Positions 12,787 to 12,806 of a DNA stretch of 64,000 bases are shown here, in pieces. Both the position numbers and the translations under genes were made by a program. The DNA comes from Escherichia phage PhiR41_1: sequence record PV340561, one strand, 5' to 3'. Numbering within the stretch: the stretch's first letter is position 1; every line of letters starts with the position of its first letter. The notes below the pieces were generated by a model. That model was not told the DNA's origin. It did no database searches and was given only the letters and a program-made list of their open reading frames with translations.

Positions 12787-12806
12787 ATAGGTAATCACTT
12801 ACCTAT
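12787..12806. promoter_or_regulatory. motif B palindrome (ATAGGTAATCACTTACCTAT, perfect)
   Basis: Perfect 8+8 palindrome 11 nt upstream of the Dam start. Confidence 0.45.

Follow-up and report, generated by a model that had tools for sequence, protein, structure and literature searches.

Motif B, a recurrent 20-bp palindrome of the Escherichia phage PhiR41_1 element, as a probable operator for the silencing of lytic genes

A 64,000-nucleotide (nt) stretch of Escherichia phage PhiR41_1 (sequence record PV340561; hereafter the window) contains a recurrent 20-base-pair (bp) palindrome, motif B, which is probably the operator of a phage-plasmid-encoded repressor, a dimeric or tetrameric DNA-binding protein that would silence the lytic genes during plasmid carriage. 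This reading was built on the enrichment of the motif, its dyad symmetry, the conservation of its sequence and position, its directional coupling to −35 and −10 hexamers, and the silence of motif-bearing promoters in a lysogen; from these observations it was inferred that the motif is bound by a protein, that the effect is repression and not activation, which protein the repressor is, and that terminators are bypassed. In the proposed mechanism, about 25-30 copies per genome occupy short gaps between lytic genes, many of them inside or against sigma-70 promoters, with a characteristic layout in which motif positions 1-17 would form the 17-bp spacer and positions 18-23 (TAY-nnT) the −10 hexamer. 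The bound repressor would exclude RNA polymerase, while copies without a promoter might act as roadblocks or contribute to cooperative binding.

The window was about 95-98% identical to Escherichia phage Cyrano (pLF82, OV696614.1), with 98% identity across positions 10000-16000, a region in which Salmonella phage SSU5 shared about 76% identity with it. On these sequence similarities, the element was therefore classed as an SSU5-like phage-plasmid. Position 1 of the window matches Cyrano 64646, and its position 45620 falls on Cyrano 1, at the small terminase gene; the plus strand holds nearly all lytic genes of the element. SSU5-like phage-plasmids are common: their large terminase gene (terL) was present in about 1000 PLSDB plasmids, with Klebsiella, Escherichia, Acinetobacter, Enterobacter, Yersinia (pMT1) and Salmonella as hosts, and the group includes relatives of Salmonella Typhi pHCM2. 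Relatives with a guanine-plus-cytosine (GC) content of 57-64%, referred to below as high-GC relatives, shared 35-57% protein identity with the window, and their DNA could not be aligned with it.

Sequence, enrichment and symmetry of motif B

The initial annotation had listed nine copies of the motif in the window, and a motif-like sequence was present at all nine. The improved consensus was a 10+10 palindrome of 20 bases, ATARGTAAGTACTTACYTAT, and comparison with shuffled sequences placed the motif far above chance. With at most one mismatch, ATAGGTAAGT had 12 matches in the window for 2.35 expected, a number reached by none of 100 shuffles, and the arms ATAGGTAA-N4-TTACCTAT, matched at 13 or more of 16 positions, gave 8 sites for 0.15 expected. 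A symmetric weight matrix trained solely on SSU5 and distant relatives, i.e. on sites outside the window, returned 11 window positions of at least 14 bits, compared with 0.025 per shuffle (200 dinucleotide shuffles). Ten of them are the strong motif B sites (3238, 7947, 12787, 15001, 19973, 42346, 49146, 51107, 53733 and 60231), and the eleventh, 45595, is the centre of a long inverted repeat; the match there, like that at 13448, was weak and corresponds to the AT-rich centre of a separate family of long inverted repeats.

Two strong sites, 7947 (23.6 bits) and 49146 (22.5 bits), had been missed by the initial annotation, as had 33340 (10 bits, identical in SSU5), and the copy that it placed at 7816 was weak (11.7 bits). 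Its description of two copies as perfect held for the 8+8 arms of 12787, although the centre of that copy, TCAC, is non-palindromic, and failed for 51107, with arms of 7+7 (ATAGGTA-TGTAAT-TACCTAT). All sites were intergenic except 49146, which lies inside the 3' end of the portal gene, and the region from about 20.0 to 42.3 kb was free of motif B except for the weak site at 33340. The sites, together with the terminator hairpin next to the first of them, were as follows (window coordinates).

3238..3257, plus strand: motif B ATAGGTAAGTGATTATCTAT, 22.0 bits, kept in Cyrano and SSU5
3264..3285, plus strand: terminator hairpin GGGCCACTA-TATT-TAGTGGCCC followed by a T-run, from the terminator scan (−26.3 kcal/mol, z = −4.9)
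7816..7835, plus strand: weak, shifted and doubtful motif-like sequence, 11.7 bits, at the stop of a MazG-like gene (open reading frame (ORF) 6746-7813)
7947..7966, plus strand: motif B ATAAATAATTGATTACTTAT, 23.6 bits, 14 nt before the thyX start (7981)
12787..12806, plus strand: motif B ATAGGTAATCACTTACCTAT, 25.9 bits, between terminator 12710-12753 and the dam start (12818)
15001..15020, plus strand: motif B GTAAGTAAGTGTTTACCTAT, 26.7 bits, overlapping the stop of the RNase H gene (14357-15004)
19973..19992, plus strand: motif B ATAGGTAAATACTTACTTAA, 25.2 bits, at the stop of a DUF4942 gene; next gene start at 20035
33340..33359, plus strand: weak site TATTGTAAGTACATACCTAT, 10.0 bits, just past a terminator and before a gene starting at 33391
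42346..42365, no strand assigned: motif B ATAAGTAAGTGATTACTTAG, 26.0 bits, in the divergent region between a UvsW-like helicase gene and parB
49146..49165, plus strand: motif B ATAAGTCTGTACTTACCTAT, 22.5 bits, within the portal gene (3' end)
51107..51126, plus strand: motif B ATAGGTATGTAATTACCTAT, 23.6 bits, 8 nt past the stop of the major capsid gene
53733..53752, plus strand: motif B ATAGGTAAGTATACACTTAA, 16.7 bits, 4 nt past a stop and 49 nt before a tail gene (start 53802)
60231..60250, plus strand: motif B ATAAGTAAGTACTAATTTAC, 22.1 bits, 8 nt past the stop of a minor tail gene

The copies had been described as standing immediately after stop codons, and this was borne out, with gaps of 4-8 nt at 3238, 51107, 53733 and 60231 and an overlapped stop at 15001 and 19973. 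The adjacency is partly trivial, because the motif itself contains stop codons: TAG/TAA at positions 2-4, TAA at positions 6-8 and, with a GTGA centre, TGA at positions 10-12, which closes all three frames (e.g. 3238-3249). At 15001, at 19973 and behind Cyrano terL, the upstream gene uses the stop of the motif as its own. The portal-internal copy at 49146 (GTCTGT) departs from the consensus precisely where the second stop would arise. No fixed position of the motif relative to start codons was detected.

Covariation between the arms was tested on 203 distinct 20-mers. There was no excess of Watson-Crick pairs at 8 of the 10 paired arm positions, the exceptions being 4/17 and 1/20; the excess at 1/20 was an artefact of strand collapsing, so that only 4/17 remained. 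At positions 5/16, G-C was found 142 times, A-C 23 times and G-T 20 times, with essentially no compensating A-T. As the arms lacked RNA-type covariation, motif B was read as a dyad-symmetric DNA site, presumably bound by a protein.

An element acting in the transcript, as a hairpin that would be processed, stabilise the RNA, belong to a terminator or be recognised by an RNA-binding regulator (e.g. the FljA-family protein encoded at 37192-37710), is quite improbable. The copies do lie in transcribed intergenic gaps, often beside terminators, and the motif forms the tip of a longer hairpin followed by a T-run at 7947, 13448 and 45595; the window also encodes a protein of the FljA family (PF03614), which acts post-transcriptionally. 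At 7947, the site is nested in a hairpin spanning 7939-7975 and followed by TTTT (−11.8 kcal/mol), the outer stem of which shows a compensatory change in Cyrano (CACG/CGTG to CACA/TGTG). Against such an element stand the missing compensatory changes in the arms (4/17 excepted) and the weak folds of the isolated motif (−3.6 to about −7 kcal/mol; −3.6 with z = −0.4 at 19973 and −7.1 at 12787). Moreover, the centre is symmetric on both strands, with 12787 inverted relative to the other sites, no Rfam family reached its gathering score anywhere in the window, and the exact 17-bp coupling to −35 hexamers described below is a property of DNA. The RNA-processing role considered in the initial annotation thus found no backing in the arms, the folds, Rfam or the spacing to start codons.

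Conservation of motif B and its coupling to promoters and terminators

Motif B is a genuine and deeply conserved family of probable operator sites. Copy numbers were about 24 in Cyrano and about 26-28 in SSU5. When viral contigs were scanned for the exact pattern, at least 120 loci came up, most of them on contigs of 85-120 kb, and a second scan with G...C ends led to the relatives of 57-64% GC. The same 20-mer was found at the same junctions of these high-GC relatives (uvsW/parB, terL/portal, scaffold/capsid, after the capsid gene and before the tail gene), and an Acinetobacter plasmid had ATTAGTAAGCACTTACTAAT, a variant with a slight shift, in the corresponding places. Among close relatives, conservation was somewhat higher for the motif than for its flanks, as at 12787 (89% compared to 76-78% for the flanks, 22 orthologous contexts); at 15001 it was 92% conserved (20 contexts). 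Pairs of motifs 30-80 bp apart were common before the capsid and tail genes of high-GC relatives (e.g. L137 13346/13397, L171 1591/1643 and L168 8962/8992), a spacing that would allow cooperative binding.

A selfish or neutral palindromic repeat, similar to repetitive extragenic palindromes or miniature inverted-repeat transposable elements, or mere low-complexity sequence, is extremely unlikely in view of this distribution: orthologous junctions are occupied across lineages without alignable DNA, the copies are intergenic (49146 excepted), and they stand in phase with promoter hexamers. In its favour, the exact 20-mer GTAAGTAAGTNNTTACTTAC was found as a single copy in each of at least 120 unrelated contigs from bacteria and archaea, some with sequence resembling (GTAA)n/(TTAC)n low complexity, and the 20-mer was also single in low-GC viral contigs. 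The perfect palindrome GTAAGTAAGTACTTACTTAC was likewise found as a single copy followed by a terminator-like hairpin in low-GC viral contigs (L140, L148, L169 and L183), and as a lone copy in at least 120 unrelated contigs of bacteria and archaea (including L268-L347), which exceeds a rough chance estimate of a few tens; such lone copies are probably due to low complexity or chance. The homologue of ORF 33391-33798 was discarded as an independent link to GTAAGTAAGTACTTACTTAC, as the four viral loci represented one element, with the gene about 900 nt away. A contig scan with the G...C variant was also discarded as a means of identifying high-GC hosts, since its matches (at least 120, single and unrelated) reflected low complexity or chance.

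For the coupling to promoters, sites were oriented by gene direction and examined for hexamers on both sides of the spacer formed by motif positions 1-17, a −35 directly upstream and a −10 at positions 18-23, with a threshold of at least 9 of 12 hexamer matches at exactly 17-bp spacing. As the motif is palindromic, the mirrored orientation provided a built-in control. In a first set of 100 sites, 12 passed in the forward orientation compared to one in the mirrored orientation, and of 104 distinct sites in an independent set, drawn from high-GC relatives, 21 passed in the forward and none in the mirrored orientation. Typical promoters of this kind were TTGCAA/TTGAAA/TGGACA-17-TACAAT/TATGAT. In the window, 49146 fills the spacer of TTGAAA(49140-49145)-17-TATGAT(49163-49168), as read from the window sequence, and the same arrangement (TTGAAA at 5/6, TATGAT at 5/6) was present at the orthologous Cyrano 3527 and SSU5 3544. 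Across the 3238 site, which lies 8 nt past the stop of a RuvC-like gene and upstream of nrdA (start 3303), the promoter scan placed TTGATA(3235)-17-TAACAT(3263).

The overlap with promoters held for a subset of copies only, and other placements were found. At 19973, the motif covers the −35 region of an extended −10 promoter, the element TGTAAGAAT at 19997-20005 being retained in SSU5 and Cyrano despite differing flanks. At 12787, where the upstream terminator (12710-12753) is inverted repeat I8, the scan gave TTGCCA(12760)-17-AAAAAT(12788) with a TG before the second hexamer, which puts the motif at about +1 to +20. Downstream of 15001, TTTACC-17-TATCTT was conserved in SSU5, and at Cyrano 59399 the motif covers the −10/+1 region of TTTACA-17-TAGTAT. 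The weak 33340 20-mer had an identical copy in the same context at SSU5 93165. A perfect minus-strand −10 hexamer, TATAAT at 42340-42345, abuts the 42346 site, which separates the minus-strand UvsW-like helicase gene (start 42300) from the plus-strand parB, and a site at this junction was also present in SSU5, Acinetobacter and the high-GC relatives. Such variable geometry relative to promoter elements is as expected of operators. Some junctions are too short for a promoter, as between Cyrano terL and portal, where only 10 nt separate the motif, itself overlapping the stop, from the next start.

Copies of the motif had been described as often followed by a GC-rich terminator hairpin. The description applied to three of the 11 strong window positions (3238, 51107 and 60231) and not to the rest. 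A strict intrinsic terminator was located within 80 nt downstream at 13 of 149 distinct sites, and in 12 of these 13 the hairpin began 0-7 nt past the motif, whereas upstream terminators stood at variable distances. Window examples are 3238 with the hairpin at 3264-3285, which begins 6 nt 3' of the motif, and 51107 with a hairpin and T-run at 51133-51153 (−27.9 kcal/mol); the 60231 site is followed by TATTAT and a hairpin at 60260-60282 (−24.2 kcal/mol). The order of stop codon, motif and terminator after the capsid gene was common to SSU5, Acinetobacter and the high-GC relatives, and in the latter the motif was flanked by TTGAAA/TGGACA-17-TACAAT/TATAGT, with the −10 hexamer overlapping the foot of the hairpin. 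The start site, about 7 nt later, would therefore fall in the 5' arm.

The capsid and nrdA junctions would thus present a promoter fused to an intrinsic terminator, with the predicted start in the 5' arm of the hairpin; transcripts arriving from upstream would end at the fused terminator, and those initiated at the regulated promoter would escape termination. It can be proposed only tentatively that this conserved cassette of stop codon, operator-promoter and terminator, present behind the capsid gene and in front of nrdA, represents a separate type of insulator, by which modules would be switched separately by a single repressor: arriving upstream transcription would be terminated, and the repressor-controlled promoter would read through its own terminator.

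Silence in the Cyrano lysogen and the choice between repression and activation

Expression was taken from a published per-gene RNA-seq table of Cyrano in E. coli LF82 (PMC9928086, supplementary file 2). In the lysogen grown in lysogeny broth (LB), genes behind near-consensus motif B promoters were at the detection floor (2.32 for CYRAN_56 and CYRAN_60, about 3 for CYRAN_4/5; PMC9928086). After 6 h in macrophages, expression rose relative to the upstream gene by 3.6 log2 units at Cyrano site 57446, 3.65 at 59399, 2.5 at 9018, 2.4 at 34730, which was leaky in LB, and 1.2 at 3527 (PMC9928086). CYRAN_4 and CYRAN_5, downstream of the orthologue of 49146, were near the floor in the lysogen and up at 6 h in macrophages. 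Cyrano 9018 and 15529 are the orthologues of window sites 53733 and 60231, and expression dropped across the terminator-linked Cyrano sites 5443 and 15529. On these coarse data, strong motif-bearing promoters are off in the lysogen and inducible. In LB and at 1 h, steps across the sites were lower than those at other junctions (one-sided test for higher steps, p = 0.98; for lower steps about 0.02 by complement), which would fit a block, in gene-level data that are near the detection floor and confounded by adjacent terminators.

Since promoters close to the consensus require no activator, a conserved protein site across their spacer implies repression; the motif's variable placement and the silence of these promoters in the lysogen point the same way. 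The alternative, an activator-dependent promoter element at which an early phage protein binds the palindrome near −20 and recruits RNA polymerase to promoters without a −35 hexamer, is unlikely. Models for it are Lpa of phage P1, which acts at the −22 inverted repeat of late promoters, and MotA of T4 at middle promoters. The comparison with late-promoter consensus sequences proposed in the initial annotation was useful here, since the core AAGT/ACTT of motif B resembles the P1 −22 boxes ATGTGACTT, AAGTTACTT and TAGTCATTT, each separated by 4 bp from the −10 hexamer downstream. Most enterobacterial copies also have TAY-nnT at positions 18-23 and lack a −35 hexamer, and expression went up behind several sites on induction.

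However, near-consensus −35/−10 pairs at 17 bp were present in 21 of 104 high-GC copies and several enterobacterial copies, yet these promoters are silent in the lysogen. The position of the motif relative to promoter elements varies, whereas activators need a fixed geometry; the centre of the palindrome lies at about −19.5 compared to about −21 in P1; and copies 11 nt (dam), 14 nt (thyX) and 10 nt (terL/portal) from the start codon cannot drive the next gene. A tblastn search of the window, Cyrano and SSU5 with P1 Lpa and C1 returned nothing significant (C1 nothing below E = 4). The best Lpa hit, 23.5 bits to ORF 39828-40427, had E = 0.78 against the genomes and 0.001 only against that single protein; this similarity is probably noise, and the ORF was dismissed as an Lpa homologue. 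Operators were thus preferred to activator sites because many copies carry good −35 hexamers and tblastn found no Lpa homologue, a profile-level search not having been made.

It is also doubtful that the copies are sites for a ParB_N-domain protein (42383-43731), a clamp dependent on cytidine triphosphate (CTP) and similar to KorB, Noc or VirB, that would control transcription or, with the adjacent ABC-type ATPases, organise or segregate DNA. On plasmid RK2, 12 dispersed palindromic operators are bound by KorB. In favour of such a protein, a block conserved in all distant relatives encodes two ParB_N proteins together with two ABC-type ATPases, and a strong motif copy stands directly before parB in every lineage examined. 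On the other side, parB (CYRAN_119) read 2.32, the detection floor, in both replicates of the LB lysogen, in which motif B promoters were already silent, the uvsW/parB site fits a leftward promoter at least as well as a rightward one, and nothing ties ParB to the sequence of motif B.

Candidate repressors, comparable systems and neighbouring repeats

The most likely repressor would be an XRE-family protein encoded beside the integrase, the orthologue of CYRAN_45, outside the window. Its gene was found in 995 PLSDB plasmids and terL in 1010, both over the same range of hosts, Acinetobacter among them, and CYRAN_45 was expressed in the lysogen. In Cyrano and relatives, the XRE gene has the promoter TTTACA-16-TAATAT and, just past its −10 hexamer, GGTAAG(C/T)ACTTACC, which corresponds to the inner 14 bp of motif B. 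This 14-mer was nearly invariant in 34 distinct upstream sequences, over a protein identity of 56-100%, the variation consisting of one G-to-A change at the first or second base in some lineages, and the Acinetobacter XRE homologue had a motif-like site in the spacer of its own promoter. The gene distribution, the expression in the lysogen and the motif core at its own promoter thus make the XRE protein the best candidate. A search for related loci with the XRE repressor returned only enterobacterial relatives. Almost all plasmid forms carry the 3.8-kb integrase/XRE segment. SSU5 (L004 42525-42761) lacks this segment, Cyrano 39356-43137, the location of the very highly expressed CYRAN_43 as well as of the integrase and XRE repressor genes; SSU5 may be a repressor-less derivative.

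Within the window, one further candidate binder was noted:

40460..40738, minus strand: 92-amino-acid protein, orthologue of CYRAN_117, with a ribbon-helix-helix-like pattern that could not be verified

CYRAN_117 was about 12-fold above background in the lysogen, and its gene follows the UvsW-like gene, in the promoter region of which the 42346 site is located. The AlphaFold model of the 92-amino-acid protein had a confidence score (pLDDT) of 83 and no significant Foldseek match in the PDB, and a profile search of PDB sequences was empty. The family is narrow. Yersinia pestis pMT1 carries both this protein and the XRE repressor.

Pfam and PHROGs scans of about 35 window and Cyrano proteins gave no clear binder. 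The FljA-family ORF (37192-37710, minus strand) matched the full length of PF03614, 'Repressor of phase-1 flagellin' (E = 1e-68), was assigned to the transcriptional repressors by PHROGs, and was expressed at a low level in the lysogen. A UmuD-like S24 peptidase without a DNA-binding domain is encoded at 26374-26763; its Cyrano orthologue was among the most expressed genes and went from 7.4 to 12.2 log2 in macrophages. The block at 42383-45556, upstream of the terminase genes, encodes the two ParB_N proteins, an ABC-type ATPase, a second ATPase/GNAT-like protein and an 88-amino-acid protein. It recurred in 7-10 loci of distant relatives (two hits for the 88-amino-acid protein), with 35-55% identity in the three examined, and was silent in the lysogen.

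Several points weigh against a lysogeny repressor acting at motif B. A convincing −35 hexamer was present in only about 12-20% of copies, and most enterobacterial copies lack one, as do activator-dependent promoters. The TAY-nnT flank alone is no promoter evidence, because it was about equally frequent in the mirrored orientation, and −10 function at most sites is unproven. Steps across all 18 sites were not systematically upward on induction, and the expression data are gene-level and close to the detection floor. SSU5 retains all sites yet lacks the XRE module, which fits a deletion derivative without proving it, and the link to the XRE repressor, outside the window, would rest on the argument from its autoregulatory site. 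The 92-amino-acid protein is as well expressed in the lysogen and is also behind a motif site. Finally, a single operator for replication, nucleotide-metabolism and structural genes leaves the temporal ordering unexplained.

The proposed repressor network has its closest parallel in C1 of P1, likewise a phage-plasmid, with a site repeated genome-wide that overlaps the sigma-70 promoters of separate lytic units. The P1 repressor gene has its own operator, as the XRE gene probably does, and C1 operators are annotated at lpa, pmgL/26, ppp, pmgR, pmgT and c1/coi. However, C1 operators are asymmetric 17-mers as opposed to the 20-bp palindrome of motif B, and P1 late structural genes are controlled indirectly via Lpa, whereas motif B also fronts structural genes. 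With no C1 homologue found by tblastn, motif B was therefore filed as the same kind of system and not as a member of the P1 family. The P1 late promoters share an AAGT..ACTT palindrome just upstream of the −10 hexamer, repeated before many lytic genes; their box is a 9-bp one with a central base, centred about 1.5 bp further upstream, and, unlike them, motif B promoters often have a good −35 hexamer and are silent in the lysogen.

In the cluster A mycobacteriophage L5, some 20-35 repressor sites, the stoperators, lie in short intergenic gaps of early and late lytic operons and are proposed to block transcription across the prophage. Copy number and intergenic placement are similar for motif B, and the steps across Cyrano sites tended downward in the lysogen. 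L5 stoperators are asymmetric, orientation-dependent 13-mers, whereas motif B and its near flanks are symmetric and a fifth of the copies are built into promoters at fixed spacing. KorB-OB of the IncP plasmid RK2 is also a palindromic operator at many plasmid promoters, and ParB-family genes lie beside one copy here; the operators differ in sequence and length, and the ParB homologue is at the detection floor in the lysogen. By analogy, motif B may work like the P1 C1 network and, at copies without a promoter, perhaps like the L5 stoperators, while being a sequence relative of neither.

Two other repeat families occur nearby. The repeat AGAAAACAAnTTGTTT(T), probably the motif A of the initial annotation, was found at 15896, 16625, 30176/30225, 30697, 32452, 32936, 34606 and 45673, 20-40 nt before start codons and just 3' of canonical sigma-70 promoters (TTTGTA-17-TATTAT at 32936). 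It is concentrated in the region without motif B, and its position suggests a hairpin of the 5' untranslated region or a +1 operator of an early gene class. The initial annotation had regarded motif B as a second regulatory class distinct from motif A, in agreement with the lack of overlap with the AGAAAACAAnTTGTTT family and the ties of motif B to promoters and terminators. FljA binds the leader of the fliC mRNA, in which the element CAAGTTGT resembles motif A, so that the FljA-family protein of the window may be linked to motif A. The second family consists of long inverted repeats, CCTGCTTCTGTATAT...ATATACAGAAGCAGG, at 13435-13487 and 45582-45636, the AT-rich centre of which weakly matches motif B. 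The equivalent repeat of high-GC relatives, which precedes the small terminase gene, is tipped by a near-perfect motif B (e.g. L056 11279 and L022 9104), and these repeats may be terminators with an operator at the apex.

One possibly relevant preprint aside, no published description of motif B or of such a control scheme in SSU5-like plasmids was found in the literature searched, and the silencing and induction of these phage-plasmids are essentially undescribed. If the repressor or a partner were the ParB-type CTPase or the protein encoded at 40460-40738, it would represent a new type of global regulator in enterobacterial and Acinetobacter phage-plasmids. Conservation of the operator from enterobacteria through Acinetobacter to hosts of 60% GC makes it a usable signature for distant members of the group. 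A recognisable operator also provides a map of transcription units and a short list of master-repressor candidates, and opens the way to direct experiments on induction, copy-number control and gene transfer.

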